In this document: in pieces, positions 1,796-63,538 of the stretch | Numbering within the stretch: position 1 is the stretch's first letter | How the letters are laid out: each line of letters opens with the position of its first letter | DNA from: Owenia fusiformis | Lineage: Eukaryota | Length of the DNA: 64,000 bases | Direction of reading: 5' to 3' | Assembly: GCA_903813345.2 (NCBI GenBank) | Contig: CAIIXF020000001.1 | Span: forward strand, 7,316,001 to 7,380,000 | The notes under the pieces: model-generated | Told to the model about the DNA's origin: nothing | The model's input: only the letters and a program-made list of their open reading frames with translations | Databases searched by the model: none | Translations under genes and position numbers: made by a program

Positions 1796-8602
<6,807 letters not shown>

Positions 8603-10085: not shown

Positions 10086-10139
10086 CTGTTATTTGTACAA
10101 ACTTAACGAAATTTTTACTTCCTACTTTTTATGAACTGA
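10086..10139 (-). promoter_or_regulatory. Putative non-coding first exon and initiator of the MRLC gene
   Basis: Strong donor CAG|GTAAGT on the - strand at 10086/10085 and a TCAGTT Inr-like motif at 10139-10134. The ATG exon begins with an acceptor only 8 nt upstream of the ATG, so an upstream UTR exon is required. Confidence 0.6.
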
Positions 10140-10369
10140 AATAACCCGACATGCCCGGATGTTCAAACCGAGGCTTCGCAGTTATTTCGCTATAGCGGTT
10201 ATAAGTATAGCTTAGTAAAGTTCTAATCTGAAAACTATTGAAAGTTTGGGTAAGAGCGTTTTGTAAGCTCATGCGACCTCATTATGTCCAAGATGGCCGC
10301 TAATTACCCAAATGCTTTATAGGGAAATTCTCATGCATGTGCTGCACGACCATGTGAAAAAACATGTGT

Positions 10370-13300
10370 AGCAGCGTAGTATACGTAGCCTGTGCAATCC
10401 TAGCCTGAGATCACCCCAGCGTAGCAGCGTAGTAGACGTAGTATGTGTAGTAAGTGTAGTATGCTCCTAGCCTGACCCCTACCCCAGCGTAGTAGCGTAG
10501 TATGCGTAGTTAGTGTAGTAAGTGTAGTATGCTCCTAGCCTGACCCCTACCCAGGCGTAGTAGCGTAGTATACGTAGTAAGTGTAGTATGCTCCTAGCCT
10601 GCCCCTACCCTAGCGTAGTAGCGTAGTATACGTAGTATGCGTAGTAAGTGTAGTATGCTCCTAGCCTGACCCCACCCCAGCGTAGTACCGTAGTATGCGT
10701 AGTAAGTGTAGTAAGTGTAGTATGCTCCTAGCCCGACCCCACCCCAGCGTAGTAGCGTAGTACACGTAGTAAGTGTAGTATGTGTAGTACGTGTAACATG
10801 CTCCTAGCCTGGGCCTACCAGAGTGTAGTAGCGTAGTAAACGTAGTAAGTGTAGTATGCTCCTAGCCTGACCCTTCCCCAGCGTAGTAGCGTAGTATACG
10901 TAGTAAGTGTAGTAAGTGAAGCATATTCCTAGCCTGACCCTACCCCAGCGTAGTAACGTAGTATACGTAGTATGCGTAGTAAGTGTAGTAAGTGTAGTAT
11001 GCTCCTAGCCTGACCCCACCCCAGCGTAGTAGCGTAGTTTACGTAGTAAGTGTAGTAAGTGCAGTATGCTCCTTGCCTGACCCCACCCCAGCGTAGTAGC
11101 GTAGTATACGTAGTAAGTGTAGTAAGTGTAGTATGCTCCTAGCCTGACCCTATCCCAGTTAGTAGCGTAGTGTACGTAGTATGCGTAGTAAGTGTAGTAA
11201 GTGTAGGATGCTCCTAGCCTGACCCCACCCCAGCGTAGTAGCGTAGTATACGTAGTATGCGTAGTAAGTGAAGTAAGCTCCTAGCCTGATCCCACCCCAG
11301 CGTAGTAGCGTAGTATACGTAGTAAGTGTAGTAAGTGTAGTATGCTCCTAGCCTGACCCCACCCCAGCGTAGTAGCGTAGTAAACGTAGTAAGTGTAGTA
11401 AGTGTAGCATGCTCCTAGCCTGACCCTACCCCAGTGTAGTAGCGTAGTATACGTAGTAAGTGTAGTAAGTGTATTATGCTCCTAGCCTGGGCCTACCAGA
11501 GTGTAGTAGCGTAGTAAACGTAGTAAGTGTAGTGTGCTCCTAGCCTGACCCTTCCCCAGCGTAGTAGCGTAGTATACGTAGTAAGTGTAGTAAGTGTAGC
11601 ATATTCCTAGCCTGACCCTACCCCAGCGTAGTAACGTAGTATACGTAGTATGCGTAGTAAGTGTAGTAAGTGTAGTATGCTCCTAGCCTGACCCCACCCC
11701 AGCGTAGTAGCGTAGTTTACGTAGTAAGTGTAGTAAGTGTAGTATGCTCCTTGCCTGACCCCACCCTAGCGTAGTAGCGTAGTATACGTAGTAAGTGTAG
11801 TAAGTGTAGTATGCTCCTAGCCTGACCCTATCCCAGTTAGTAGCGTAGTATACGTAGTATGCGTAGTAAGTGTAGTAAGTGTAGGATGCTCCTAGCCTGA
11901 CCCCACCCCAGCGTAGTAGCGTAGTAAACGTAGTAAGTGTAGTAAGTGTAGCATGCTCCTAGCCTGACCCTACCCCAGTGTAGTAGCGTAGTATACGTAG
12001 TAAGTGTAGTAAGTGTAGTAGCTCCTAGCCTGACCCTACCCCAGCGTAGTAGTGTAGTATACGTAGTAAGTGTAGTAAGTGTAGTATGCTCCCATCCTCA
12101 CCCTACCCCAGCGTAGTAGCGTAGTATGCGTAGTAAGTGTAGTGAGTGTAGCATGCTCCTAGCCTGACCCTACCCCAGCGTAGTACCGTAGTATGCGTAG
12201 TAAGTGTAGTAAGTATAGTATGCTCCTAGCCTTACCCACCCCAGCGTAGTAGCGTAGTATACGTAGTAAGTGTAGTATGTGTAGCATGCTCCTAGCCTGA
12301 CCCTACCCCAGCGTAGTAGCGTAGTATACGTAGTAAGTGTAGTAAGTGTAGTATGCTCCTAGCCTGACCCTACCCCAGCGTAGTAGCGTAGTAAACGTAG
12401 TAAGTGTAGTAAGTGTAGCATGCTCCTAGCCTGACCCTACCCCAGCGTAGTAGCGTAGTATACGTAGTAAGTGTAGTAAGTGTAGCATGCTCATAGCCTG
12501 ACCCCACCCCAGCGTAGGAGCGTAGTATACGTAGTATGCGTAGTAAGTGTAGTAAGTGTAGTATGCTCCTAGCCTGACCCCACCCCAGCGTAGTAGCGTA
12601 GTAAACGTAGTAAGTGTAGTAAGTGTAGCATGCTCCTAGCCTGACCCTACCCCAGTGTAGTAGCGTAGTATACGTAGTAAGTGTAGTAAGTGTAGTAGCT
12701 CCTAGCCTGACCCTACCCCAGCGTAGTAGTGTAGTAAGTGTAGTAAGTGTAGTATGCTCCTAGCCTGACCCTACCCCAGCGTAGTAGCGTAGTAAACGTA
12801 GTAAGTGTAGTAAGTGTAGCATGCTCCTAGCCTGACCCTACCCCAGCGTAGTAGCGTAGTATACGTAGTAAGTGTAGTAAGTGTAGCATGCTCATAGCCT
12901 GACCCCACCCCAGCGTAGTAGCGTAGTATACGTAGTATGCGTAGTAAGTGTAGTATGCTCCTAGCCTGACCCCACCCCAGCGTAGTAGCGTAGTAAACGT
13001 AGTAAGTGTAGTAAGTGTAGCATGCTCCTAGCCTGACCCTACCCCAGTGTAGTAGCGTAGTATACGTAGTAAGTGTAGTAAGTGTAGTAGCTCCTAGCCT
13101 GACCCTACCCCAGCGTAGTAGTGTAGTATACGTAGTAAGTGTAGTAAGTGTAGTATGCTCCCATCCTCACCCTACCCCAGCGTAGTAGCGTAGTATCCGT
13201 AGTAAGTGTAGTAAGTGTAGTATGCTCCTAGCCTGACCCTACCCCAGCGTAGTAGCGTAGTATGCGTAGTAGTGTAGTAAGTGTAGCATGCTCATAGCCT

Positions 13301-15745
13301 GACCCCACCCCAGCGTAGTAGCGTAGTATACGTAGTATGCGTAGTAAGTGTAGTAAGTGTAGTATGCTCCTAGCCTGACCCTACCCAAGCGTAGTAGCGT
13401 AGTATGCGTAGTAAGTGTAGTAAGTGTAGTAAGTCTAGCATGCTCATAGCCTGACCCCACCCCAGCGTAGTAGCGTAGTATACGTAGTATGCGTAGTAAG
13501 TGTAGTAAGTGTAGTATGCTTCTAGCCTGACCCTCACCCCAGCGTAGTAGCGTAGTATACGTAGTAAGTGTAGTAAGCGTAGTATGCTCATAGCCTGACC
13601 CCACCCCAGCGTAGTAGCGTAGTATACGTAGTATGCGTAGTAAGTGTAGTAAGTGTAGTATGCTCCTAGCCTGACCCCACCCCAGCGTAATAGCGTAGTA
13701 TATGTAGTAAGTGTAGTAAGTGTAGCATGCTCCTAGCCTGACCCTACCCCAGCGTAGTAGCGTAGTATACGTAGTAAGTGAAGTAAGTGTAGCATGCTCA
13801 TAGCCTGACCCCACCCCAGCGTAGTAGCGTAGTATACGTAGTATGCGTAGTAAGTGTAGTAAGTGTAGTAGCTCCTAGCCTGACCCTTCCCCAGCGTAGT
13901 AGTGTAGTATACGTAGTAAGTGTAGTAAGTGTAGTATGCTCCCATCCTCACCCTACCCCAGCGTAGTAGCGTAGTATGCGTAGTAAGTGTAGTAAGTGTA
14001 GTATGCTCCTAGCCTGACCCTACCCCAGCGTAGTAGCGTAGTATGCGTAGTAAGTGTAGTAAGTGTAGTAAGTGTAGCATGCTCATAGCCTGACCCCACC
14101 CCAGCGTAGTAGCGTAGTATACGTAGTATGCGTAGTAAGTGTAGTAAGTGTAGTATGCTCCTAGCCTTACCCTACCCAAGCGTAGTAGCGTAGTATGCGT
14201 AGTAAGTGTAGTAAGTGTAGTAAGTGTAGCATGCTCATAGCCTGACCCCACCCCAGCGTAGTAGCGTAGTATACGTATTAGCGTAGTAAGTGTAGTATGC
14301 TTCTAGCCTGACCCTCACCCCAGCGTAGTAGCGTAGTATACGTAGTAAGTGTAGTAAGCGTAGTATGCTCATAGCCTGACCCCACCCCAGCGTAGTAGCG
14401 TAGTATACGTAGTATGCGTAGTAAGTGTAGTAAGTGTAGTATGCTCCTAGCCTGACCCCACCCCAGCGTAGTAGCGTAGTAAACGTAGTAAGTGTAGTAG
14501 TGTAGCATGCTCCTAGCCTGACCCTACCCCAGTGTAGTAGCGTAGTATACATAGTAAGTGTAGTAGCTCCTAGCCTGACCCTACCCCAGCGTAGTAGTGT
14601 AGTATACGTTGTAAGTGTAGTAAGTGTAGTATGCTCCCATCCTCATCCTACCCCAGTGTAGTAGCGTAGTATGCGTAGTAAGTGTAGTAAGTGTAGTATG
14701 CTCCTAGCCTGACCCTACCCTAGCGTAGTAGCGAAGTATGCGTAGTAAGTGTAGTAAGTGTAGCATGCTCATAGCCTGACCCCACCCCAGCGTAGTATAC
14801 GTAGTATGCGTAGTAAGTGTAGTAAGTGTAGTATGCTCCTAGCCTGACCCTACCCAAGCGTAGTAGCGTAGTATGCGTAGTAAGTGTAGTAAGTGTAGTA
14901 AGTGTAGCATGCTCATAGCCTGACCCCACCCCAGCGTAGTAGCGTAGTATACGTAGTATGCGTAGTAAGTGTAGTAAGTGTAGTATGCTCCTAGCCTGAC
15001 CCTCACCCCAGCGTAGTAGCGTAGTATACGTAGTAAGTGTAGTATGCTACTAGCCTGACCTTACCCCAGTGTAGTAGCGTAGTATGCGTAGTAAGTGTAG
15101 TAAGTGTAGCATGCTCCTAGCCTGACCCCACCCCAGCGTAGTAGCGTAGTATACGTAGTATGCGTAGTAAGTGTAGTAAGTGTAGTATGCTCCTAGCCTG
15201 ACCCCCACCCCAGCGTAGTAGCGTAGTATACGTAGTAAGTGTAGTAAGCGTAGTATGCTACTAGCCTGACCCTACCCCAGTGTAGTAGCGTAGTATGCGT
15301 AGTAAGTGTAGTAAGTGTAGCATGCTCCTAGCCTGACCCCACCCCAGCGTAGTAGCGTAGTATACGTAGTATGCGTAGTAAGTGTAGTAAGTGTAGTATG
15401 CTCCTAGCCTGACCCCACCCCAGCGTAATTGCGTAGTATATGTAGTAAGTGTAGTAAGTGTAGCATGCTCCTAGCCCGCCCCTACCCTAGCGTAGTAGCG
15501 TAGTATACGTAGTAAGTGTAGCATGCTCCTAGCCTGACCCTACCCCAGCGTAGTAGCGTAGTATACGTAGTAAGTGTAGTAAGTGTAGTATGCTCCCATC
15601 CTCATCCTACCCCAGCGTAGTAGCGTAGTATGCGTAGTAAGTGTAGTAAGTGTAGCATGCTCCTAGCCTGACCCCATCCCAGCGTAGTAGCGTAGTATAC
15701 GTAGTAAGTGTAGTAGTATACGTAGTAAGTGTAGTAAGTGTAGCA
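10370..15745 (+). repeat. Satellite arm (left): ~55-80 bp units ATGCTCCTAGCCTGACCC(T/C)ACCCCAGCGTAGTAGCGTAGTA(TACGTAGTA)(AGTGTAGTA)n
   Basis: Directly visible tandem array; unit length varies with the number of 8-9 bp GTAGTA sub-repeats. Confidence 0.97.
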
Positions 15746-15907
15746 TAATTAACACTTTTTGGGAAAAGGAAGATTAAAGACTAATAGCCGTTACACCGTG
15801 CCATTATTGGAGTCACTAAAATGTGTAAAGTCTATTTACATCGCAAGATGGGAACTTGTCAAATTATGTAATTCAATCATTTACAAATACGGTAGACTTT
15901 CCGAAAA

Positions 15908-16662
15908 TAGGGAGTTTAAGATTAGCGTAAATAACCCATTTACCTATACCTATACGTAGTTTGTTATTACACTAAGCGGTATTTTACCTAAGTTACAGGG
16001 TTTATGATACGTTATTACCTATAAATGGCCGAAGATAGGTAATTCGAAAACGTATGTTTTTATCCAACAAATTATGTCATTTCTAGATCAAATATCATCC
16101 ATTAAACTTTAAAATAGTAACAACAAACATTTCTCATTCGATCTGCATAGAAATTAAGTGGTCGAACACATTCATCGATGCGATAAACGATGCCATGTGA
16201 TGATGCATGGAATTGTTGAATTTAGTTTTTTCATTAGTTTTGCTTATTGTAAATGTATGAAATCAGCCATTTTCCCAGTTTGAATTGGTTAACTTTACTA
16301 TTTGGTCACTCTCATTGCTGGATCATGCTAGAAATTTAACATTTCGACTTAAGTCACTGCCCCATAAGCGGGCCCACAAGCAACGCCCCCTCCCAACTAC
16401 AGTAGCTACACCACACTCTCTCTCTGAAGTACATAACATTCTTGGAGGTGACATGTACTGGTATGTACCATATAAGCCATCGCATGGTTTTCATTCTATA
16501 ATTAGGATGTCATTTTTATCATAAATTGCAGCATACGGTTTCGTAGCTTTTTACGTTAATCTTAAACTCATTTTGCAATACGCATTACCTATACGCATCC
16601 GTAACAAACATACGACTAGGGATAGGTACACGTATATTTTTACGCTAATCTTAACCTCCCTA
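15908..16662. mobile_element. MITE with 24-bp TIRs
   Basis: TAGGGAGTTTAAGATTAGCGTAAA ... TTTACGCTAATCTTAACCTCCCTA (1 mismatch). Confidence 0.6.
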
Positions 16663-19600
16663 CTGATCAGTCCTTCAAAACGCAAGTGTAAATTATGTTA
16701 CACGATATGTTCTGTATGTTCTGTATTTCAATTCAAGATTTAAGTTCAAAAAGTAGGCTTAACAATGAGGAAGAAAATGTTTTTACAGAAAAAATTAATA
16801 ATGTTTCTCTTCACTCGGCTCCAGTCGCAGTGAAGACAGAGCGTGCGAAGATGAGATACAACAGTACTTGGAGAATAATCAAGAATAGATTATATTTAAT
16901 TTTAGTATTAGCGTCGCTATCATCTGTGTCACACGTTTCTTTAAAATAATACAAATACTTTTTTGAATTACTGAATTGAAAATATGACTCGCAAACATTT
17001 TCTTACAATAATTTTAGATTCTTTGGATTAAGTTGTATCATTAAATAAAACAACACATGGAATAATATCAGTTAGAACACATTGGTTGGGAAAGCAACTT
17101 TTAGTGCCTTCTGCAGATTTAAGGATTGAGCCAGGCTATTCTGATTTTTTGTTCATCTTTAAAAGCACAAAGAGAACTTTCAAATGAGCCATGGCTTGTG
17201 TCTTAACAATTTTTCCTTGCATATATAAACCAATAAGTCGGATTTGAATTTAGCACATTTCCTCTAAATCTTGGGCACATTTTTGGCTCTATAGCACAAT
17301 TTCAATTCTGTGATAAGACAGGTTTTCCTATGGCAAGGCTCAATTATCTATATATCATGGTAGACCATAATTTGTAATGAGGAGATGTTCAATTTCACAC
17401 TACTTGTCATGATCATACTAGTAAGTAAAAAATGCGGTACAGAATCATTATTCGCGAATGCATACTTTGCAGGCCCGTAGCAACTTTTTAAGAGATGTAC
17501 TGTCATACTTGGGATTGTAATGATGTCTTGCTGGGAGTTCTCTAAAAATAAAGCTGAAAAGTCGAGAGAAATGTTGAAAGGAGGATAAATTATTACGTTT
17601 AGTGAGCTCCTCCGCACCCAATATTTAGAGGGGGCTCATATCTGAAGAACATTTCCTAATTTTTATAAAATCACACAGATACTGCCTGGCTTCCAAAATG
17701 CAAAAATAATTTGTATGGATAGTGTATCTTGAACACCATTTTTTATAAATGCTGGGGACGCAGTATAAAAAGAATAATTTCAAAATATATAAGTCTGGGA
17801 AAGGTTTAAGGCATATTGCGTCGCTATAGAATGAATTGCACTACTATTTTCACAATTTTATTGATATTTGGTGTCAAATACACATATCTTGGTATATTTG
17901 AAGTCCCAAAACGGCTTAGTTTCAGAAATATCCCAAATTTAAATTAAAAAATGACCGTTCGCTCCGCACCCTCCGCTCATTTGCACCGCACCCAATATTT
18001 CCCACAGGCTCTGTCTGCAAAGGGTGTATCCGATCTTAATGTTTATTGAAGTACGTACCACATTCGTTTTTGTAAACATATGTAAAATATTGTAAATAGT
18101 GGGAGTGCCCTTTTTTAAAATAGAATACCGGTTTGGTGAGATATTTATTTTGATCTTTATTGATAACATGAATTTTGAACAATTGATTCAATCATGCATG
18201 ACAGTGAATGAGTGATTTGATCACTGTCTTGATACACGTACATGACGTATGATACATGAAACATGCGTTGACATTGGGTACACCCCAGTTGTCCGAAACC
18301 CAGTTGTTCGAAACACATTACTTCGAAAAAATAGTCATAATTTACCAGAGAAAGGGGGACGTACTTTTTAGGCCAGTTTCATGCCATGACGGGTTGCAAA
18401 AAGCTCGCGCACGCATTGTTACACATTTTGTGGCGTAATCCAGAGGATCCTCGCTTTTAACATGATAGAATGTGACGTTTTTGAGAAAAATGTACACACA
18501 TGAAAATCCTTTCGTCCTCCACATTTACCTCTATATCTCAAAACATTTTAGACGAATAACTCTGATATCATATATATATTGTTAATGGGCTAGGAGCATC
18601 ATAAAACACGAATCAATTGGCTTATGGGCCATGTAAACCAGGCTAGAATATGCAAATTAGATAGATACATATATGTATACATACATATATCTATGTATTC
18701 ATGCATATATATATTATATGCCAGCACAGAATATGCAAATTAGATAAATACATACATTATTATATGTATTCATATATATGTATGATATATATACAAGCAT
18801 GGAATATGTTAATTAGATAGACTAGATACATAACAATTAATTTATTAGTTGGCATAGTATATGTTAATTAAATAACAATAATTCATGAATATCTGAGATA
18901 TCTATGAATATGCTTTAATTTATGAGATATATGTGTATTGTATACATGTTATATATGTATGTATTTGTATATATCTTCTAAGCTGGTCCCCAGTCCCCAG
19001 TTCCCAGTTTGAGATATCTATATGCTATTTATAATATGTATGTATTTGTATGTATCTTTTAAGAAGGTCCCCAGTCCCCAGTTCCCAGTTTGAGATATTT
19101 ATATGCTATATATAATATGTATGTATTTGTATGTATCTTTTTAAGAAGGTCCCCAGTCCCCAGTTCCCAGTTTGAGATATCTATGTTTGTGTATATATGT
19201 ATTTGTATGTATCTTATAAGTTGGTCCCCAGTCCCCAGTTCCCATTTTGAGATATCTATGTCATATGTATGTATGTATCTTCTAAGCTGGTCCCCAGTCC
19301 CCAGTTCCCAGTTTGAGATATCTATATGTAGGTATTTGTATTAAACATTGACAGAATATGAAATGAATATAACTTCGTAACAAAAAAGTACAATTGTAAA
19401 TCTAATATGTACGTGTATTAAACATTGACGTCACAGAATATGAAATTAATATTCACCTTTCCACAAAGTAAAGAAAATCGATAATTTCCGGCGGGCTGAT
19501 TGGTTGTATGCAAATGAGTCAAATCAATGATGTCAATGCCTGAAAGTTTTGAAGAATTAGTACAGCCAGCATAGGAATATTTTGAATTAACTGCAATAAA

Positions 19601-20221
19601 AAGGATTCTATTTGCCCAATGCACTAATTATTTTTAGTCAAATATGAAATATGGACAGGGCACTTTCATTCCGAATCTTATGTAATTTAATTTAATCATT
19701 TTTTGACAGAGCTATTGTTTATTAAGACTTCTCAGATCAGCCTCACATACCCGGGCTCACATGTCTCGTGTGATTGTAAACAAAAAATGTAAATTGAGAA
19801 GTTAAAAACGACTCGGTTGAATTATTTGATAGTGGTCATACAATATCCTGTTAAATGTTACGTCGTAGTAAGAAATTCCATCAGAAATTCACATAACATT
19901 CGCACAAAGCGTTACCTTTTGGTACTTATTCGCCATCAGTCAATAATGATCAGCAATGTCAACATATCATCAATAAACATTGTATGATATACGCTCTTTC
20001 TCTGAAATCTTCCCAGTGATCATTATTCAAAACCGATCATCACATAACTAATTTATTCTATGAAAAGTGAGGTTTTACAAGTGAAGTTTTCAGGACACCC
20101 TGCATATCCAGGTTTTTTTTCATTGATTTCATTTCAATTGACTGTTTCTACACTGAATAAAAAACATTTTCCCGGGAATATTTGGATTGGGAGATACACA
20201 GCGGGAAATATACATTGGAAT

Positions 20222-25500: not shown

Positions 25501-26097
25501 GATACATACAAATACAAATATACACAAACATAGATATCTCAAACTGGGAACTGGGGACTGGGGACCTTCTTAAAAGATACATACAGATACATACATACAT
25601 ATTATATATAGCATATAGATATCTCAAACTGGGAACCGGGGACTGGGGACCAGCTAAGAAGATACATACAAATACATACATATTATATATAACAATATAG
25701 ATATCTCAAACTGGGAATTGGGGACTGGGGACCTTCTTAAAAGATACATACAAATACATACATATTATATATAGCAATATCTCAAACTGGGAACTGGGGA
25801 CTGGGGACCTTCTTAAAAGATACATACAAATACATACATATTATATATAACAATATAGATATCTCAAACTGGGAACTGGGGACTGGGGACCAGCTTAGAA
25901 GATATATACAAATACATACATATATAACATGTATACAATACACACATATCTCATAAATTAAAGCATATTCATAGATATCTCAATGTAGGATATTCATGAA
26001 TTATTGTTATTTAATTAACATATTCTCTGCCAACTAATAAATTAATTGTTATGTATCTAGTCTATCTAATTAACATATTCCATGCTTGTATATATAT

Positions 26098-28496: not shown

Positions 28497-28497
28497 T

Positions 28498-28515
28498 TGG
28501 TGTCAGAAGTGGGAT
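28498..28515 (+). promoter_or_regulatory. Primer binding site, tRNA-Leu
   Basis: TGGTGTCAGAAGTGGGAT, 1 nt after the 5' LTR, is complementary to the ...ATCCCACTTCTGACACCA 3' end of eukaryotic tRNA-Leu (CAA/CAG types). Confidence 0.85.
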
Positions 28516-28542
28516 AAGTAAAACGATAGTACCGAGCACAAT

Positions 28543-32265: not shown

Positions 32266-32357
32266 AGAAGGCACCAGGAGTCAGAGAGTGAAGACAGTTA
32301 TAGTACATTTGTTTTTATAGTTTGCATATTTTTTTTATGTGAGGGCACATAAAAGCT

Positions 32358-32367
32358 AGAAGGGGGG
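32358..32367 (+). promoter_or_regulatory. Polypurine tract
   Basis: AGAAGGGGGG, two nt before the 3' LTR. Confidence 0.8.
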
Positions 32368-32369
32368 TA

Positions 32370-34768
32370 TGTGGGAAAATTTCATTTTTATATTGAGCCT
32401 TTTAAATTTTCCCATCTGTGCAGTTAGGGAAAGCCCTGTTTACTAGAGGGAATTCCAGGGTATTCCAACACAGGAAGGGGAATCCCCTCAATTGCTGCAA
32501 TGCAGTGCCCCTGATTTCAAAATGTGGTCACCTGTGCCTGTATGACTCATGCCATCACGAGATGAGAACGAAGGTCGCCATCTTGAAGGAAGCAGCGTGA
32601 ATCAAAGGTTGGGAGGAAATCCACATTTATCACACTTTAGAGTAGCCATCTGCCAAGGATTCGGGATTAATAACGAATGATAAAGCGGGAAGACGCACCA
32701 GGAGGTTCTTGAAGGAGAAACAACAGAGAAAACCTGAATTTTTGGCAACTTAGAGAAAGAAGCATTTATTCGGGTGAGGTTTTTCCTTTTTGTAATTTGA
32801 TTTTATGGCCAGCATGCTACTAGGTGCCTCTGACTGACTATAATTTTTAATTTCATGTGTACCAGAATTTGTAACTTTATGGCCAGCATGCTACTGGGAT
32901 GCCTCTGACTGACTGTAGTTATAATTCAACGGGTATTGAGATTTATCGTGCGTCGCCATTTTGTGTCCCAGACTTGCTAAAGTGAGATATTTGTCAGATT
33001 TAATGTAAAACAACACTGTGTCATTAATTGCCTAAAGTGTTGTCAAGAATTCTTCACAGTTCAGTGCTGTCCTAGGGGAAGCAGCAAGGAACAACCTGGA
33101 AGCAGCCTTGCATTATCGTTAGGTGAAATTGGGAAACTTCCCAAAACGGCGAACTAATTTTGTCAGTTGGTTTCACCGCTGACAGAAATAGTTCCAGGAA
33201 GACTTCCATCGCATCGGGCAGTGAGGAGCCTTCCCAGAAAACTCAAGAGCCATAGAGGCAGAGCAAGGCTAAAGAGCCAGAAGAGTCAAGTCAAGAGACA
33301 GCGTGAGCTTATTTTGTCAGTTGGTTTCACCGCTGACAGAAATAGTCCCAGGAAGACTTCAATCGCATCGGGCAGTGAGGAGCCTTCCCAGAAAACTCAA
33401 GAGCCATAGAGGCAGAGCAAGGCTAAAGAGCCAGAAGAGTCAAGTCAAGAGACAGCGTGAGATTATTTTGTCAGTTGGTTTCACCGCTGACAGAAATAGT
33501 CCCAGGAAGACTTCAATCGCATCGGGCAGTGAGGAGCCTTCCCAGAAAACTCAAGAGCCATAGAGGCAGAGCAAGGCTAAAGAGCCAGAAGAGTCAAGTC
33601 AAGAGACAGTGTGAGCTAATTTTGTCAGCTGGTTTCACCGCTGACAGAAATAGTTCCAGGAAGACTTCCATCGCATCGGGCAGTGAGGAGCCTTCCCAGA
33701 AAACTCAAGAGCCATAGAGGCAGAGCAAGGCTAAAGAGCCAGAAGAGTCAAGTCAAGAGTCACAGTGAACTATTTTGTCAGTTGGTTTCACCGCTGACAT
33801 AAATAGTTCCAGGAAGACTTCTAGAGCAACGAGCAGCTAGGAGCCTTCCCAGTAAGAAGAGGAACTAAGCTCAAGGGCCAGAGGAGCCAGGCTAAAGAGC
33901 TGAACGAGGAGCCAGAGGAGCCACGTTCGGGAGCCAGAGGAGCCAAGCTCAAGAGCCAGAGGGGCCGGGCTAAGGAGCCAAAGAGCTGGACGAGGAGCCA
34001 GAGGAGCCAAGTCCAGGAGCTAAAGGAGCCAAGCTCAAGAGCCAGAGGAGCCAGGCTAAAGAGCCAAAGAGCTGAACGAGGACCCAGAGGAGCCAAGTTC
34101 AGGAGCTCAAGGAGCCAAGCTTAGGAGCCAGAGGAGCCAGGCTAAGGAGCTAGAGGAGCCAGGCTAAAGAGCCAAAGAGCTGGACGAGGAGCCAGGCTAA
34201 GAGCCGAAGAGGAGCCAGAGGAGCCAGGCTAGGAGCCGAAGAGCCAAGTCCAGGAGCTAAAGGAGCCAAGCTCAAGAGCCAGAGGAGCCAGGCTAAGAGC
34301 CGAGGAGCCAGAGGAGCCAAGCTCAAGAGCCAGAGGAGCCAGGCTAGGAGCCGAAGAGCTGAACGAGGAGCCCGAGGAGCCAAGTTCAGGAGCCAGAGGA
34401 GCCAAGCTAAAGAGCCAAAGAGCTGGACGAAGAGCCAGAGGAGCCACGTTCAGGAGCCAGAGGAACCAAGTTCAAGAGCCAGAGGAGCCAGGCTACAGAG
34501 CCCAGGGAGCCAAGCAAAGAGCTAATAACGCAGCAACCGCCGACATCCATCCTACAAAGAGAATTATAGTGACATTTTAGTTTATGAACATTAAAGTGTT
34601 ATTTTCATGTGTTAATAGTTGTGTTAGAAATATATGTATTAAATTGGAAGCCATTTGTGACTGTCGTTTTATCCAGTCCACCAAACCAGGACTGGGCCCA
34701 CAGAGAAGTGTAAGGTGAAAAAGTTACTCATCGCTTCCAGACTATCAGCAAAAGTCTGGAACGCGACA
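32370..34768 (+). repeat. 3' LTR (2399 bp)
   Basis: Same termini; ORF-track translations inside both LTRs are identical at offset 6272. Confidence 0.95.
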
Positions 34769-36169
34769 ATATCATACATATATATAAATACATATAATAA
34801 TAATGTATGTATCTATCTAATTTGCATATTCTGTGCTGGCATATATAGATATATGCATCTGTATATATATGCATATATGTATCTATCTAATTTGCATATT
34901 CTGTGCTGGTTTACATGGCCCATAAGCCAATCAATTGATATTTTAGGTGAAATAAATATACGTGTTGCTGTGCTTGAAAATAGGCGAATGGCGTAAATTA
35001 GTCCTATTTTAATGAATTTTGAAAACCTTTCGTCCTCCACTTTTCCACATACAACAGAAAACACATACTTTTGTGAACAAAATCAACTAATTATTAATAA
35101 ACTAGAGTTTAGGAGCAAAATAATCATGTATGATTTATTAAAAATTGATCTCGTATTTTTTGTTTAATGTACACCTGAAAAGTTGAAGGTACCAAAAAAT
35201 GAGCAAAAAAGGTCGCTGTCAACAGATTCTATTTTTCAGACTCTATGACGTCACAATATGGGACGCTTACTAAAATTCATCCTTTGAAATAAAACTTCCA
35301 TCTACCTTTATCAAGACGAAAAATAAGTATAATAGTCATATATTGTTTGAGTTATGAGCGTATAAAGACGAAAAATAATTCAAAATGTAACGTGTCAACA
35401 TGGGATATTTGCCAGATGTTTTGGTAAAAAACTCTTTTTTAAAAACGAACGCGCAAAAAATGTGAACGGAGTGTAGTTGATCTAAAATCTTCATCGAAAC
35501 AGCTTTAAAATGATATATAACTTTAATTAGAATATTATCTTATATTCCGGGGAATCAAAGTTACACAAAGAAATTAGCAGGTGTAAGTGTCTTTGGGTGG
35601 CTATTTTTCTTCAAATTCTTCATTTTTTTGCCAGCTGTCAACACATTCTGGCAATGCTTTAATTTTAATAGAATTATTTTAATATTTTACTAACTGTATA
35701 ATATGTAGTTTGCATTACTGTTGATACATAAATAAATGATTGCACTGTTCAGTAAAGAAATATACCAATTGTATTATTTAAACTGACTATACACTATAGA
35801 AATGATTTTCATTGAAAAATCAAATCAGTACCAAAATTATGGTTACCCTGTAGTGGTGAAAGGCAAATTAAAAATGAATATCACCCCCTTCAATCTATTT
35901 TTACAGGTTTTTATGATTATTTCAGATTTTCTATAGTTTGCGTAACCAGGACGGTGAATTTTCTTCATTTTTCATCAAACATTTTGTCTTACCAATATTT
36001 ATTATATCTGTCAATTTTATCAAAATCGCGCCGCTACGTTTGAAAATAATTCAAATTATGTAGTTTTTCCCATTGAGCTCCATTATAAAAATGGAATTTT
36101 CAAACTTAATATTTTAAAATTCTACGCGGTGAAAAGTTGCATATTGAGTAGTTAGTAAATGTTATGGTG

Positions 36170-36790
36170 TTAAAAATTCAAAACAAAAAGGAATAAAGAA
36201 AAAATGCCACAGAGATGTCTCAATAGAGTATCTTTAAAGCACATTTCAAAGATATGCAGGACTTCCTCAATATTTGATTTGTATGACATAATGTGTAGGA
36301 AATTGTTTTCCTCAGTCATGTTAGAAAAGTCCTTATTTGACGTTTGAATTTTATCCAATAATATAGTGCGCTTACGTTCGTAGATTTTGCATGTCACAAC
36401 AAAGTGCAGCTCATTTTCAACACGATTATCTGAACATTTTTGTACATTTGCGTTCGTTTACATTTTTATTTTGTAAATAGTTTCTTTCTTTCTTAAAAGA
36501 TATTTTCAGTAGTGACAAATTGTTCAAAATGTATATTACTTTTGAATTTAATATAGGTTCACATTTTAATATTATAAGATGGGGCCCTTATATGGTTTGC
36601 TACCAGAGCTTTTTTTCATCTTCCACTGGTCATTGCATTTAGTGATAAGTTTTTGGTTAACAGATTTTAAGATTGTATTTTTAAGGATGAGTCGCAGACT
36701 GTATTTTTTATATTTCATGTGTGAAAGTAATTTGCTTATTTGGGAAATCTTTGGCAGCATACTTATGTGTGTCCAGTATTTAATTGCAGG
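36170..36790 (-). pseudogene. Degenerate 3' fragment of a non-LTR retrotransposon ORF2
   Basis: - strand reads ...KCSDNRVENELHFVVTCKIYERKRTILLDKI, the C-terminal CCHC-type motif of LINE ORF2; frameshifts and stops upstream. Confidence 0.6.
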
Positions 36791-39700
36791 CTAAGAGCAT
36801 ACTACAAGTTCTACACTTACTACGTAAACTACGCCACTACGCTGAAGTTGGGTCAGGTTACGAGAATATTACACGTACTGAACTTACTACACTTACTACG
36901 TATACTACAGTACTACGCTGGGGTTGGGTCAGGCTAGGGGTATACTACACTTAATACACTAACTATGTATACTACGCTACTACACTCTGGTAAAAATGAT
37001 CTAGACAAGCTTGCTCTCTGGGCTGCCACCTGGAAGATGCAATTCAAAGCTCAAATAAGTGCAGATATGATTTTTTCTAGAAGGAACATTTTATCTCATC
37101 CACCACCTTTGAGATTAGGTGCTGATGTTATCCCTAGCTGTGAGAATCACAAACATCTTGGCCTTAATTTTGACAATCACCTTAACTTTAATTATCACAT
37201 TGACCAGATTATAAAAAGAGTAACTTCTTTTTTGAGACCGATGATGAAGCTGAGTAAAATTATAAATAGTCAGCACTTAGAGATATTATATAATACTTAC
37301 ATTATGCCTCATCTTGACTATTGTGATGTCATCTACAACAAGGCATCTAACATGAAATTACAAGCTCTTGAAAGACTTCACTACAGAGCAGCTTGCCTGG
37401 TTTCTGGGGCTATACACGCTACTACGCTGGGGTAGGGTCAGGCTAGGAGCATACTACACTTACTACGTTTACTACGCTACTACGCTTGGGTAGGGTCAGG
37501 CGAGGAGCATACTACACTTACTACACTTACTACGCTACTACGCTGGGGTGGGGTCAGGCTAGAAGCATGCTACACTTACTAAACTTACTACGTATACTAC
37601 GCTACTACGCTGGGGTAGGGTCAGGCTAGGAGCATAATACACTTACTACACTTACTACGTATACTACGCTACTACGCTGGGGTGGGGTCAGGCTAGGAGC
37701 ATACTACACTTACTACGTATACTACGCTACTACGCTGGGGAAGGGGCAGGCTAGGAGCATACTACACTTACTACACTTACTACGTATACTACGCTACTAC
37801 GCTGGGGTAGGGTCAGGCTAGGAGCATATTACACTTACTACGTATACTACGCTACTACGCTTGGGTAGGGTCAGGCGAGGAGCATACTACACTTACTACG
37901 TATACTACGCTACAACGCTGGGGTGGGGTCAGGCTAGAAGCTTGCTACACTTACTACACTTACTACGCATACTACGCTACTACGCTGGGGTAGGGTCAGG
38001 CTAGGAGCATGCTACACTTACTACACTTACTACGTATACTACGCTACTACTCTGGGGTAGGGTCAGGCTAGGAGCATAATACACTTACTACACTTACTAC
38101 GTATACTACGCTACTACGCTGGGGTGGGGTCAGGCTAGGAGCATACTACACTTACTACACTTACTACGTATACTACGCTACTACGCTGGGGTAGGGTCAG
38201 GGTAGGAGCATACTACACTTACTACGTATACTACGCTACTACGCTGGGGTAGGGTCAGGCTAGGAGCATACTACACTTACTACACTTACTACGTATACTA
38301 CGCTACTACGCTGGGGTAGGGTCAGGCGAGGAGCATACTACACTTACTACACTTACTACGTATACTACGCTTCTACGCTGGGGTGGGGTCAGGCTAGGAG
38401 CATGTTTCACTTACTACACTTACTACGCATACTACGTATACTACGCTACTACGCTGGGGTAGGGTCAGGCTAGGAGCATACTACACTTACTACACTTACT
38501 ACGTATACTACGCTACTACGCTGGGGTGGGGTCTGGCTAGGAGCATACTACACTTACTACATTTACTACGCATACTACGCTACTACGCTGGGGTAGGGTC
38601 AGGCTAGGAGCATGCTACACTTACTACACTTACTACACTAACTACGTATACTACGCTACTACGCTGGGGTAGGGTCAGGCTAGGAGCATACTACACTTAC
38701 TACACTTACTACGTATACTACGCTACTACGCTGGGGTAGGGTCAGGCTAGGAGCATACTACACTTACTACGTATACTACGCTACTACGCTTGGGTAGGGT
38801 CAGGCGAGGAGCATACTACACTTACTACGTATACTACGCTACAACGCTGGGGTGGGGTCAAGCTAGAAGCTTGCTACACTTACTACACTCACTACGCATA
38901 CTACGCTTCTACGCTGGGGTAGGGTCAGGCTAGGAGCATGCTACACTTACTACACTTACTACGTATACTACGCTACTACTCTGGGGTAGGGTCAGGCTAG
39001 GAGCATACTACACTTACTACACTTACTACGTATACTACGCTACTACGCTGGGGTAGGGTCAGGCTAGGAGCATACTACACTTACTACGTATACTACGCTA
39101 CTTCGTTACTACGCTGGGGTAGGGTCAGGCGAGGAGCATACTACACTTACTACACTTACTACGTATACTACGCTACTACGCTGGGGTGGGGTCAGACTAG
39201 AAGCATGCTACACTTACTACACTTACTACGCATACTACGCTACTACGCTGGGGTAGGGTCAGGCTAGGAGCATACTACACTAACTACACTTACTAAACTT
39301 ACTACGTATACTACGCTACTACGCTGGGGTAGGGCCAGGCTAGGAGCATAATACACTTACTACACTTACTACGTATACTACGCTACTACGCTGGGGTGGG
39401 GTCAGGCTAGGAGCATACTACACTTACTACACTTACTACGTATACTACGCTACTACGCTGGGGTAGGGTCAGGCTAGGAGCATACTACACTTACTACACT
39501 TACTGCGTATACTACGCTACTACGCTGGGGTAGGGTCAGGCTAGGAGCATACTACACTTACTACACTTACTACATATACTACGCTACTACGCTGGGGTAG
39601 GGTCAGGCGAGGAGCATACTACACTTACTACACTTACTACGTATACTACGCTACTACGCTGGGGTGGGGTCAGGCTAGGAGCATGCTACACTTACTACAC

Positions 39701-41170
39701 TTACTACGCATACTACGTATACTACGCTACTACGCTGGGGTAGGGTCAGGCTAGGAGCATACTACACTTACTACACTTACTACGTATACTACGCTACTAC
39801 GCTGGGGTGGGGTCTGGCTAGGAGCATACTACACTTACTACATTTACTACGCATACTACGTATACTACGCTACTACGCTGGGGTAGGGTCAGGCTAGGAG
39901 CATGCTACACTTACTACACTTACTATGTATACTACGCTACTACGCTGGGGTAGGGTCAGGCTAGGAGCATACTACACTCACTACACTTACTACGTATACT
40001 ACGCTACTACACTGGGGTAAGGTCAGGCTAGTAGCATACTACACTTACTACGTATACTACGCTACTACGCTGGGGTGAGGGTCAGGCTAGGAGCATACTA
40101 CACTTACTACACTTACTACGCATACTACGTATACTACGCTACTACGCTGGGGTGGGGTCAGGCTAGGAGCATGCTACACTCACTACACTTACTACGCATA
40201 CTACGCTACTACGCTGGGGTAGGGTCAGGCTAGGAGCATACTACACTTACTACACTTACTACGTATACTACGCTACTACGCTGGGGTGGGGTCAGGCTAG
40301 GAGCATGCTACACTTACTACACTTACTACGTATACTACGCTACTACGCTGGGGTGGGGTCAGGCTAGGAGCTCACTACACTTACTACGTATACTACGCTA
40401 CTACGCTTGGGTAGGGTCAGGCGAGGAGCATACTACACTTACTACGTATACTACGCTACTACGCTGGGGTGGGGTCAGGCTAGGAGCATGCTACACTTAC
40501 TACACTTACTACGCATACTACGTATACTACGCTACTACGCTGGGGTAGGGTCAGGCGAGGAGCATACTACACTTACTACACTTACTACGTATACTACGCT
40601 TCTACGCTGGGGTGGGGTCAGGCTAGGAGCATGCTACACTTACTACACTTACTACGCATACTACGTATACTACGCTACTACGCTGGGGTAGGGTCAGGCT
40701 AGGAGCATACTACACTTACTACACTTACTACGTATACTACGCTACTACGCTGGGGTGGGGTCTGGCTAGGAGCATACTACACTTACTACATTTACTACGC
40801 ATACTACGTATACTACGCTACTACGCTGGGGTAGGGTCAGGCTAGGAGCATGCTACACTCACTACACTTACTACGCATACTACGCTACTACGCTGGGGTA
40901 GGGTCAGGCTAGGAGCATACTACACTTACTACACTTACTACGTATACTACGCTACTACGCTGGGGTGGGGTCAGGCTAGGAGCATGCTACACTTACTACA
41001 CTTACTACGTATACTACGCTACTACGCTGGGGTGGGGTCAGGCTAGGAGCTCACTACACTCACTACACATACTACGCTACTACGATGGGGCAGGGGTCAG
41101 GCTAGGAGCATAGTACACTTACTACACATACTACGTATACTACGCAGCTAGGCTGGGGTGGTCTCAGGCT
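36790..41170 (-). repeat. Satellite arm (right), reverse complement of the left arm, interrupted by a LINE fragment
   Basis: TACTACGCTGGGGTAGGGTCAGGCTAGGAGCATACTACACTTAC... tandem units. Confidence 0.97.
36992..37413 (+). mobile_element. Internal fragment of a CR1/L2-group LINE reverse transcriptase embedded in the satellite
   Basis: NDLDKLALWAATWKMQF...HKHLGLNFDNHLNFNYHI...LYNTYIMPHLDYCDVIY...LERLHYRAACLVSG is the RT C-terminal/thumb region. Confidence 0.85.
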
Positions 41171-43889
41171 ATGACTGTTTTCACATGGTCGTGCGGCACA
41201 TGCATGAGAGTTTTCATATAGGGCATTCGGGTGATTAGCGGCCATGTTAGACCTAATGAGGTCGCATGAGCTTACAAAACGCTTCTTCCAAAGTTTGATT
41301 AAATTGCAGTTTGATTTGCAAGCCCACGTTTATAAACTTATTAGGCCTGATAGGATCTGAATTGACCGTTGATGAGTTACTAGATATTAATCAAATCGGA
41401 TGACACAGGAAGAACTACCTAGAGGCCAAAATTATATGAATTAAAGCACCAAAATTTCTATTTTTTTATTCTGCCACTCTGATTTAAAAGTTTCAAAATA
41501 TTGAGGTATGTTACCTTCTTCTTAGGCTACTATATTGGCTAGAGATTAAATTGTCTACATTGACTGCCGAAACTGGATAATCATGTTAACGATGCATAAT
41601 ATTTTTGGAAAAATATAAAAAGAAATTCTGAAATTACTTTTGCGACGTCTTGATCCTTGGCTCTGATGCCTTGTACAGTAACATTAATATCCAGTGGAGG
41701 TACCGTTTCCTCCTTTGTATAATAGCCTAGTGAATGGCAACAGACGCAGGCCTGTCAAGTGTCCCGCAATTTGTGTATTTGCTGAAGAAATTGAAGTCAC
41801 GCCAGTATTTTTGCGTGACAGAATATGTCACACTGACACAAATACACCTCCTCTGATTATTGTCGAGCAAAAATCTATCTGGAGAAGAACATCAAAAAAA
41901 TAAATCACAGAAAAAATGTCATGTGAATTGCGCATATGTCACACATTTGCTTCGAAATTTTTGTCTCCCTGCCTGAAAATCAAGATATTCATGTAATTAT
42001 TAAACTATACTTTAATGTTTAGATGGCACCACAATTCATATCAAAGCTCAGGTGAAATTGTGGTCTTTCACCCTTTCATATATATGGAAAAGGCAAAGTA
42101 TTTTATTGGTCATATTGCACAGTGGTACTATAGGGGGGCACTACCTCTTAAGTATGCATTCTGCAAAAATACTGTTCATTCTTTTAAATATGAAGTTATC
42201 CCTATTCAAATAATATTATATCTAGCTTTATATATTTGACAACAACCCTGATATATACATATTTATGAAGCATAATTACAATGTTTGTCATTAGTTATGC
42301 ACTGAAATGGATGTGATGTGTGACACAATCATTCAAGAGACATCCCAAACTATACATCTGACATATAAAGAACAATGGGCTGATAACTCAACAAGGCGCT
42401 TATAGTCTATTATGATAAATAAACTATACTACCTGTACATGTAGTAAGTATACTATTCTTATGTATTGCTCTCATGTACATTGGCACTAGCATTGTTACA
42501 TATCTTTCATATAGCACAACCACTCAAATGCATGATATGTGGCGCTGAATGGTCATCAGCACTATCTTTTTTCATAGGGTTAACCACATATCCAGAATAT
42601 GGTATGATATTGAAATAAGACCATTATGCACACACCGTACATCATATTTTAAGTTCAAGTTTGAAGTACATGTTAAAGTCTTATACACTACAATGTAATT
42701 GAGAAATGTGTAAATCTAGGTGACAATACATGTATGCCCCATTCAAGGAGGTCAAAAGTTTGGCATCACCTGTTGTCTAAGTTTGAGAGCACCTAAGCAT
42801 TTCACAATCATCATTTACATCTATTGTGCTCCCGGGGTTTTCTCAAAATATCATTTTGGGTCTGCCAAAGTTCTGATTCATAGAAATGATAATATCTCTG
42901 ATATCAAGTCGTCATGTGTATCAAAAAATGGCAAATGATTTTACATTGAAGAGAAGGATGAAAATGAGATTTGGGATTTATTGGAGAAAAATTCTCAAAA
43001 AAATTCAACTGAAAATACAGTTCATTGTATCTGTGATATTTGCTCTAAATACAATTTAAGTATAGGCCTAAGATATGATATAGATGATTGTTTTCTCTAT
43101 TTGTACATGTAAATGAAATAAGTTTTTTGATACAGTATTGTCTTTGCTGTAACTTCATCTTTATCAGCATCTTATAAAGTCGAAAAGAAATGCTATTTAT
43201 GCAGCTCCTCTCTATTCTATTGTTGGTCATTCACCAAATGGGCTTTTGGCATATTTTGAGATGTGTCCTTGAAATTTGTACATTATTAATCTATTTGGCA
43301 AACATTCTTATCATTTTACATGTGAGAGTCAGTGTCCATGTATTATTTCTTACATCTTGCATGTGGTAAATCATTACATTAGATAACATTATAGCCTACA
43401 ATTTATGAAGCTTTGCAGTTCATATACATTGTAAGTGAAAACCTGGCAACATCTTGGGAAATAGCCTCATCATATAATTTCTAATCAGGACACAGTGGAT
43501 ATATAAATTCAAAAGGACTAAAAGCAAAATCAAACACTTTTTCACCGTCAAAAAGCAATGGATTTTAGGAAAAAATCAAGGCATTATCACATTCAAAATA
43601 AAATCAAACATTTCTGACTTGTTGGAATCAAGAAATGACTAAAATCTACGTAGCACCTTTAAATTAATCATTCCCTATTAAATATTAATCTGTGTTCTCT
43701 ACTTTAGGACTGAGTGACCTGATCAAGGCCAGTTGAAGAAGTAAGATGGCCCTGATTGGTTGGAATAGTGTGAGAGGTATTGCAAAACACTTATCTAGGA
43801 ACAGATCAGCTGTTTGTAGCACATGCATAACCTGTAAGCCAGCATTGCAGAGCAAGTTACAGTCTGTTTATATTTTACAAACTGCCAGT

Positions 43890-63381: not shown

Positions 63382-63538
63382 GGACAACTCATCCCCTAGA
63401 CAACTCATCCCTGGACAACTCATCCCCTAGACAACTCATCCCCTGGACAACTCATCCCCTAGACAACTCATCCCCTGGACAACTCATCCCCTAGACAACT
63501 CATCCCCTGGACAACTCATCCCATGGACAACTCATCCT
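63382..63538 (+). repeat. 16-bp tandem repeat (G/A)GACAACTCATCCCCT x10
   Basis: Directly visible; first base mostly alternates A/G. Confidence 0.95.

Follow-up and report, generated by a model that had tools for sequence, protein, structure and literature searches.

The 64-kb window analysed here, which is the whole stretch of Owenia DNA under study, contains an element of ~31 kb that has an EF-hand exon on one side and a PLP-decarboxylase gene on the other. Read directly, its first letters are GG (10249-10250) and its last letters CC (41288-41289), and the two ends begin GGTAAG and GGAAGA when both termini are read inward. An exact 8-bp direct repeat, AAAGTTTG, abuts the GG...CC ends at 10241-10248 and 41290-41297, an arrangement with a chance, for fixed positions, of 1 in 65,536. 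The original prediction had described both of these features, and both are present as described. The element carries a unique terminus at each end, on the left at 10249-10369 (forward strand; blastn against the right end, alignment, and word depth) and on the right at 41172-41289 (reverse strand; direct reading, blastn, and alignment). In blastn against the window, the left terminus matches the inverted sequence of 41283-41178 with 89.6% identity over 106 nt (E 1e-36), in line with the proposal that the same unique sequence of ~115 bp caps each satellite block on its outer side, and all other matches to 10249-10369 in the window have E >= 0.24. As this terminus is present at the outer end only of each arm, neither arm represents a complete element on its own.

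The two termini are ~10% divergent from each other, more than would be expected if the insertion is young. Other copies vary further at some of the same positions, however, so the divergence may predate the insertion. Exact-pattern scans of metagenome, prokaryote-genome, and viral contigs with a conserved 21-nt stretch of the terminus returned 0 matches, as did a scan of metagenome contigs with the commonest 22-nt word of the satellite, and five strings of 16-17 nt taken from the terminus and the satellite were absent from the literature in a full-text search.

The arms that lie inside these termini are arrays of a 67-bp satellite. The left arm (10370-15745, forward strand) is formed by ~78 units in the length classes 58, 67, and 76, while the inverted right arm is formed by a main array of ~56 units (37416-41171, reverse strand) and the three innermost units (36787-36992, reverse strand), which gives arm lengths of about 5.4-5.5 kb on the left and 4.4-4.5 kb on the right, with ~78 and ~59 units, respectively. 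TRF reports 75.4 copies of the 67-bp unit at 10555-15715 and 54.8 copies in the opposite orientation at 37510-41171, and 2545 inverted pairs link the arms, the 25 longest of which extend over 319-463 nt at 90-96%, which bears out the opposite orientation of the two blocks that had been predicted. The repeat is absent from the window outside the element. The right block, described originally as one array at 36790-41170, is indeed an array, but not a continuous one, given that an unrelated piece of 423 bp (36993-37415, forward strand) separates 36787-36992 from 37416-41171. This piece has no Pfam match and no second copy in the window, and all 30 of its nearest Atlas clusters (best scores 0.96, 0.95, and 0.94) are without a common Pfam family; in the nearest clusters that do bear a family, PF00078 (RVT_1) is found on 15% and 10% of the members, a lead that points to the piece as possibly coming from the tail of a retroelement reverse transcriptase.

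The comparison of the satellite units took those of exactly 67 nt (29 of the 72 left intervals and 33 of the 57 right intervals), and the mean identities were 92.9% within the left arm, 95.5% within the right arm, and 94.0% between the arms, with no arm-diagnostic position among the units compared. Judging from these sequences, the two arms appear to represent a single homogeneous pool, yet they are not mirror images, and mirror symmetry was rejected, with the best HSPs scattered over many diagonals. The arrays would expand and contract through slippage or unequal exchange, acting both on a 9-bp sub-repeat and on entire units. The derivation of the satellite unit from the terminus was also considered and rejected, with a score of 8 against a shuffle mean of 9.5, and 259 of the 300 shuffles reaching 8.

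The middle domain is formed by two unique parts, which share no inverted homology except satellite remnants, and the nested insertion between them. The left part (15746-18601) is non-coding, none of its ORFs matching a Pfam family at E <= 0.001, and the right part (34946-36786) is non-coding TE debris, in which the sole match is weak and below the cut-off. This match, of the ORF at 36173-36457 (reverse strand) to ARM_KNTC1_1st (E 6.8e-4; bit score 20, cut-off 27.3), was considered as a possible host exon inside the element and rejected as spurious, and there are no other KNTC1-like exons among the 79 ORFs of the flanks; the translation presumably resembles a C-terminal motif of the proteins of non-LTR retrotransposons.

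A single nested element of 16.3 kb had been predicted between these parts. The insertion is real, but it is made up of two elements, a long-TIR element (B) and an LTR element (C) within it. Element B (18602-34945; ~7.7 kb without C), delimited by its paired arms and by reading its ends, has arms of ~750 bp that contain 82-bp tandem repeats, and its arm at 18602-19342 pairs with 34945-34769 plus 26097-25511 at 83-89%. The ends, as read, present no clear target-site duplication, with a TA/TA pair possible by eye that may be due to chance. Element C (26098-34768, forward strand), which lies in the right arm of B, has LTRs of 2399 bp (26098-28496 and 32370-34768) that are 100% identical in blastn, together with TG...CA ends and a 4-bp ATAT duplication. 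Its open reading frame of 1247 aa (28522-32265, forward strand) is gag-like, with a Pfam match to zf-CCHC (E 7.6e-6), Ty3_capsid and DUF1759 under the cut-off, and no pol domains found by Pfam. In the Atlas it falls near gag/aspartic-protease clusters (0.83-0.87), a lead only. The middle domain would have been hit first by B and then by C. Without the nested 16.3 kb, the outer element measures 14,697 bp, which agrees with the ~14.7 kb estimated originally.

Among the 76 ORFs of at least 45 aa tested in the interior, none matched a transposase family of Pfam at E 0.05 or better, as anticipated from the lack of a visible transposase ORF, and none was found in the rest of the window among the 79 flank ORFs tested. 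The Rfam search at gathering scores and the tRNA scan of the window returned nothing.

Short-read contigs and reads of other conspecific samples were placed on the left junction (window 9400-10400), and the empty site was found in three of these samples (X1, X2, and X3), in the contigs of which the two flanks are joined directly through a single copy of AAAGTTTG. In X2, a contig of 533 nt lies on 10065-10248, and its overhang past 10248 matches window 41298-41327 at 29 of 30 positions; this empty form is the only contig of X2 seen across the site. One contig of X1 has the same right-flank overhang, and in X3 a contig of 228 nt lies on 10072-10246 and continues for 53 further letters, with 25 of the 28 shown past the duplication matching the right flank, so that this contig represents a diverged allele. 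As none of the contigs of the three samples has an excision footprint, they look like sites prior to the insertion rather than sites from which the element was excised. Given that these contigs join the two flanks directly, the whole unit is a single, polymorphic insertion, and the search for an empty site in other individuals, proposed originally as a check, has thus supported one element over two independent satellites. The empty-site contigs could in principle derive from a paralogous locus rather than from an allele, and a discrete insertion is shown in either case.

The filled left junction is also found in X1, in a contig of 58 nt that is exact over 10219-10276. Its depth is 36, where that of the flank contig is 66, and these depths fit a heterozygote. 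With 30 letters on one side of the junction and 28 on the other, the contig falls just short of the 31-letter bridging rule, although a junction unitig would be expected to have this length. The insertion is direct evidence of recent mobility, and is still segregating in the species.

The terminus is not restricted to this locus. Word depth at 10250-10283 reaches 1234 in X1, 2940 in X2, and 2058 in X3, against 59-66 in the flank (X1 and X2), that is, ~19-50 times the flank, although these are the word depths of contigs and not copy numbers. The depth drops to 472-722 at 10318-10351, and the outer ~68 nt (10249-10317), which are several-fold commoner than the inner part, are common to a larger family. 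Loose ends with differing sequences before 10249 were found in two contigs of X1, one of X2, and two of X3, and in three reads of a further sample, X8, and more lie at 10245-10248; at least eight groups of loose ends, from four runs, have different letters at 10245-10249. The terminus is therefore multi-copy, and ends at the exact base 10249 against several flanks. The 45 raw reads of X8 all lie only partly on the stretch, most of them less than 95% alike, so this sample is uninformative on the locus, beyond showing that it, too, contains repeated copies of the terminus. In 4-5 of seven loose-end flanks, the duplications of the other copies seemed by eye to favour a palindrome (A at position 2 and T at position 7), but these are too few for a claim.

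The passage from the terminus into the array (10275/6-10386) is covered by contigs of two variants, with a depth of 121-310, including an exact copy of the left type in X2 at a depth of 214. The depth of this terminus-array junction is 1.8 to 4.3 times the word depth of the flank, depending on the run, which is, again, not a copy number. The suggestion that the element acts as a vehicle for the spread of a satellite family is supported in part, as the junction is found in at least two sequence variants, also in X2, in which only the empty form is seen across the present site.

The inverted arrangement of the arms might also be explained without a single transposon. If two half elements or arrays had been inserted independently ~21 kb apart, in opposite orientation and with host DNA between them, the differences between the arms, which are not collinear mirror images and differ by ~1 kb in length, would be accommodated, as would the lack of inverted homology between the inner unique parts. 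The empty-site contigs of three samples contradict this scenario, however, as they lack all of 10249-41289 and keep one AAAGTTTG, and the identical 8-mer outside both outer ends, together with the terminus found only on the outward side of each arm, also stands against it, which makes independent insertions exceedingly improbable. Long inverted repeats can also be produced by fold-back repair, or by missed adapters in a long-read assembly, and the structure might thus be an inverted duplication, a repair palindrome, or a chimera of the assembly. This is hardly less improbable, since an 8-bp duplication and GG/CC ends delimit the structure at exact breakpoints and, unlike those of an artefactual palindrome, the arms differ in unit order and length. 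Independent short reads, furthermore, place the end of the terminus at the identical base against several other flanks, and one of the short-read contigs is an exact, independent match to the left junction in its filled form. Window 10249-41289 is thus, very probably, a single non-autonomous foldback-type class II (TIR) DNA transposon.

The superfamily is assigned by inference, because no transposase was found. The hAT elements have an 8-bp duplication with termini of the (C/T)A(A/G)NG type, and this assignment was rejected, since the duplication is 8 bp here but GGTAAG and GGAAGA do not fit the motif. Helitrons and Helentrons, which have neither TIRs nor a target-site duplication, are ruled out as satellite carriers here by the TIRs and the 8-bp duplication. 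The GG termini and the 8-bp duplication, as sequence features, appear to fit Merlin, and Mutator/Phantom less well. A conserved terminal 5'-GG with duplications of 8 or 9 bp is stated as the signature of Merlin (Feschotte 2004, as summarised in the available text of PMC8101967), and both traits are found here, with the other copies ending at the same base. This signature counts against a classical Foldback relative moved by a Mutator/Phantom (MULE-domain) transposase, an alternative that bears on the superfamily only, and in which the duplication is typically 9 bp, with a range of 8-10 (available text of PMC3169594 and PMC4079207), against exactly 8 bp in this copy, confirmed by the empty site, in the one duplication measured. 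The alternative gains, on the other hand, from the foldback elements with a known transposase, which, in the available text of the same two papers, are mostly Mutator/Phantom, and from the 8-10 bp duplications reported there for Tm1 and Tetris, a range that includes 8 bp. On balance, a Merlin-like affinity is plausible, but falls short of an even chance, and both Mutator/Phantom and some other or unknown superfamily are less probable still, at about the same level. During insertion, the target would be cut with a stagger of 8 bp and the whole unit pasted in, giving rise to the duplication of AAAGTTTG, and a transposase encoded elsewhere would bind the outer ~68 nt shared with the larger family of elements.

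The element has the traits of the foldback type, with a short unique terminus followed inward by long inverted arms made largely of tandem repeats; it behaves as one mobile unit (with a duplication and an empty site), and its terminus occurs in multiple copies with different flanks. Inverted arms of short tandem repeats are found in the FB and TU elements. Galileo (P superfamily, Drosophila) also has long, internally repetitive TIRs, and the tandem repeats in these TIRs, in the accounts available, carry extra transposase-binding sites, a possible model for the build-up of repeats in the Owenia arms. Galileo has 7-bp duplications, TIRs of ~1 kb, and termini that start with CA, not GG.

The nearest published analogue, by structure and in a different host, appears to be Tetris of Drosophila virilis (Dias et al. 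2014, PMC4079207). The available text of this paper describes Tetris, like the Owenia element, as non-autonomous and without an ORF, with no autonomous partner found there, and with a variable non-coding middle domain and duplications of 8-9 bp in the complete copies; the terminal part of its TIRs is common to a smaller family, DAIBAM, just as the outer ~68 nt are more abundant in Owenia. The TIRs of Tetris, however, reach up to 1,735 bp with 220-bp units, whereas the Owenia arms measure ~5.5 kb (~78 units of 67 bp) and ~4.5 kb (~59 units). The units of Tetris also have 37 bp in common with the domain that flanks them, while the similarity between unit and terminus in Owenia is not above that of shuffled sequences. 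FB of Drosophila, TU of the sea urchin, and Tm1 of root-knot nematodes (available text of PMC3169594 for Tm1), all of the Mutator/Phantom group, share with the Owenia element inverted arms made up mostly of short tandem repeats in variable number, as well as a predominance of non-autonomous copies, and the TIRs of Tm1 are imperfect (mean 93%), as are the Owenia termini. This group differs in its usual duplication of 9 bp, against 8 bp, and Tm1 in its 13-15 bp repeats and elements of 1-2.6 kb, against a 67-bp unit and ~31 kb; unlike in Mutator/Phantom, no MULE/FLYWCH transposase could be linked to the Owenia element. In Merlin, the TIR range of 24-462 bp covers the unique terminus of ~115 nt, and one family has an internal tandem repeat of 163 bp in 3-4 units, while tandem-repeat arms at the kb scale are not described in the available text of PMC8101967; no IS1595-type DDE of Merlin was found in the Owenia window. 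The element thus belongs to a known kind, in which the length of its arms and the direct evidence of its recent mobility are unusual.

It has long been asked how satellite repeats arrive at new sites on chromosomes, and transposons with tandem-repeat arms are one of the routes that have been proposed. Tetris is the published foldback example of this route, and in the present case, one segregating insertion has placed ~10 kb of satellite DNA (~78 + 59 units), which indicates that a single jump can bring this amount to a new site. It is conceivable, if rather doubtful, that a Merlin-type transposon (IS1595-like DDE) has here taken on the foldback form and is active at present, and its jumps would then deliver ~140 units (~10 kb) to gene-adjacent sites, directly seeding new satellite loci. 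The structure is also a warning for annotation, which might otherwise count the two arrays as satellites independent of each other. As the filled and empty states exist at one locus, the turnover of the arrays after insertion, the identity of the mobilising transposase, and the influence of an inverted repeat of 5 kb on the stability and chromatin of the surrounding DNA are directly measurable there.

The sequence from 10249 to 41289, hereafter the outer element, is shown to be a single, discrete and recently mobile insertion by its inverted termini, the exact 8-bp duplication at its borders, an empty site that three samples carry free of any footprint, and a constant terminal base, which adjoins several different flanks. 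The left boundary reads AAAGTTTG at 10241–10248, followed by GGTAAGAGCG from 10249, and the right boundary CGCTTCTTCC up to 41289, followed by AAAGTTTG at 41290–41297. In a blastn search of the window, the terminus (10249–10369) had one other significant match, in inverted orientation at 41283–41178 (89.6% over 106 nt, E 1e-36), and no further significant copy, the remaining matches all having E values of at least 0.24. The inverted satellite blocks, the inverted unique termini and the 8-bp direct repeat of the original prediction were all borne out. The window is AT-rich, eukaryote-like DNA, with a G+C content of approximately 31–38% outside the repeats, and two blocks of approximately 46–48%.

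Public runs containing 9400–10369 were sought, and the short-read contigs of three samples from one study (X1, X2, and X3) and the raw reads of a further run (X8) were aligned to 9400–10400. A 533-nt contig of X2 spans 10065–10248 and then continues into an overhang equal to window positions 41298–41327 at 29 of 30 positions, and one contig of X1 has the same overhang past 10248. In X3, a 228-nt contig spans 10072–10246, with 53 further letters; past the duplication, 25 of the 28 letters shown agree with the right flank, and this contig represents the same join in a diverged allele. The empty site, which had been proposed as a check on the prediction, was found in all three samples, as the left flank, a single AAAGTTTG and the right flank, with no footprint. 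The filled junction is represented in X1 by an exact 58-nt contig (10219–10276) with a depth of 36, versus 66 for the flank contig, which, beside the empty-site contig, is what a heterozygote would give. It extends 30 letters to one side of the junction and 28 to the other, just below the 31-letter bridging rule, and 58 nt is the length that a junction unitig should have. Among the pieces listed, none from X2 or X3 spans the filled junction, and the X8 reads provided only partial matches, on repeated parts.

Word depth at 10250–10283 reaches 1234, 2940, and 2058 in X1, X2, and X3, respectively, versus 59–66 in the flank in X1 and X2, and falls to 472–722 at 10318–10351; contig depths are not copy numbers, and these values are read qualitatively. 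Overhangs with differing letters before 10249 were found in two contigs of X1, one of X2, two of X3, and three X8 reads, with additional overhangs at 10245–10248, while those behind 10304–10337 represent copies that diverge within the terminus. The contigs running from the terminus into the first unit (10275/6–10386) form two variants, with depths of 121–310, one exactly of the left type and the other with six differences and one gap. The exact left-type variant is present in X2 at a depth of 214, and the sole X2 contig seen across the site is the empty form. Qualitatively, the outer ~68 nt are common to a many-copy family, of which a smaller subset runs on into the array.

The left arm (approximately 10370–15745) and the right arm (36787–41171) are formed by a 67-bp repeat that was not found elsewhere in the 64-kb window, and to which the unique terminus is no more similar than shuffled controls. 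TRF recovered 75.4 copies at 10555–15715 and 54.8 copies, in the opposite orientation, at 37510–41171. The blocks share 2545 inverted matching pairs, the 25 longest being 319–463 nt with 90–96% identity. Cutting at a 12-nt anchor yielded 72 left and 57 right intervals, in length classes of 58, 67, and 76 nt, with some doubles of 134, and the 9-nt step between classes equals the GTAGTA-type sub-repeat within the unit. Identity was compared for intervals of exactly 67 nt alone, 29 out of 72 on the left and 33 out of 57 on the right, and averaged 92.9% left–left, 95.5% right–right, and 94.0% left–right; no position distinguished the arms. The best HSPs between the arms (up to 752 nt, 94%) are scattered over many diagonals, so the arms are not mirror images. 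With neither arm-specific positions nor mirror symmetry, the arrays represent a single sequence pool, turned over independently within each arm. The most diverged units are the outermost left ones (identity to the consensus of 0.87 and 0.91). An unrelated 423-bp stretch splits the three innermost right-arm units (36787–36992) from the rest of that array, and its frame resembles atlas clusters with RVT_1 on a minority of their members, as a lead only.

The terminus is present in the window at the outer end only of each arm, so neither arm is a complete element. The contigs and reads over 9400–10400, together with the asymmetry of the arms, contradict the arrival of the arms as two independent insertions, and equally a palindrome made by repair or an artefact of the assembly. 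The empty-site contigs support the original interpretation of one element rather than two satellites. Structurally, this one element is a non-autonomous foldback-type TIR transposon, built of a unique flanking domain, a domain of tandem repeats, and a middle that is variable and non-coding. Its mobilization would involve a DDE transposase acting in trans, with 8-bp staggered cuts.

The middle domain consists of two unique non-coding parts (15746–18601 and 34946–36786), separated by a nested block, element B (18602–34945; 16,344 bp), without which the outer element measures 14,697 bp, as predicted. None of the 76 interior ORFs of at least 45 aa matched a transposase family at E ≤ 0.05; the one sub-threshold match, to KNTC1 ARM (20 bits, with the cut-off at 27.3), was judged spurious. 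Two short frames at 36173–36457 (−) and 36993–37415 (+), on opposite strands and without a threshold Pfam match, resemble tail fragments of non-LTR retrotransposon proteins, with an atlas lead in the same direction; one of the two interrupts the right arm.

Element B is itself foldback-like, with arms of approximately 750 bp (18602–19342 versus 34945–34769 plus 26097–25511; 83–89% identity) that contain 82-bp tandem repeats in 4–6 copies. None of its ORFs was found to match a Pfam family, and no target-site duplication was convincing, TA/TA being one possible reading. Within B, short repeats in direct and inverted orientation (78–300 nt, 62–100% identity) cluster at 20224–23012, spaced approximately 520–570 nt apart, and resemble tandem or inverted MITE-like units. 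The right arm of B is interrupted by an LTR element, element C (26098–34768), without which B is approximately 7.7 kb long. The LTRs of C are unusually long (2399 bp) and 100% identical, with TG...CA ends, a 4-bp ATAT duplication, and tandem repeats of 154 bp (4.5 copies) and 22/64/86 bp. A zinc knuckle (E 7.6e-6) was recognised in its sole long frame (28522–32265; 1247 aa), together with capsid-like profile matches below the cut-off, and in the atlas this frame neighbours clusters of gag or aspartic protease with scores below 0.9, a lead only. Protease, RT, and integrase were not detectable in C, which has the gag-like frame alone and looks like a non-autonomous retroelement that inserted very recently.

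Upstream of the outer element is an EF-hand exon (8351–8671, minus strand; E 5.5e-9), and downstream, two plus-strand frames match consecutive parts of a PLP-dependent decarboxylase domain (51644–51838, profile positions 256–287; 52628–52813, positions 307–346). The outer element therefore lies close to genes, either between host genes or in an intron. A separate satellite at 45930–47853 (43-bp units, ~42 copies, 89% matches), unrelated to the 67-bp repeat, is strongly asymmetric between strands (GC skew −0.435 over 46001–48000), and small arrays are found at 50380–50703 (66/138-bp units, 4.8 copies) and 63382–63537 (16-bp unit, 9.8 copies).

Following comparison with Tetris, Tm1/Foldback, Merlin, hAT, and P/Galileo, the outer element is filed under the structural class “foldback”, with the superfamily left unassigned and Merlin slightly favoured. 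The termini of hAT and P/Galileo are not known to begin with GG. Merlin is defined by a terminal 5'-GG and 8–9-bp duplications, both found here, and TIRs of 24–462 bp (PMC8101967). Tm1 and the classical Foldback are assigned to Mutator/Phantom, with mostly 9-bp duplications (PMC3169594). The nearest published analogue is Tetris of Drosophila virilis, which shares the foldback structure, TIRs composed of a flanking domain and tandem repeats, the lack of an ORF, a similar duplication (8–9 bp, against 8 bp here), and terminal TIR parts common to a MITE family, as the terminus here is to a larger family; neither has a known autonomous partner (PMC4079207). The TIRs of Tetris reach at most 1,735 bp, in contrast with arms of approximately 5.5 and 4.5 kb here (PMC4079207). 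Satellites derived from TIRs are a recognised category (PMC9659126), and a full-text search with partial literature coverage found no paper printing the terminus or satellite strings. The outer element is a further member of an already known kind, the foldback-type transposons, and is notable for the length of its arms, the amount of satellite per single event, and the direct evidence that the insertion is segregating.
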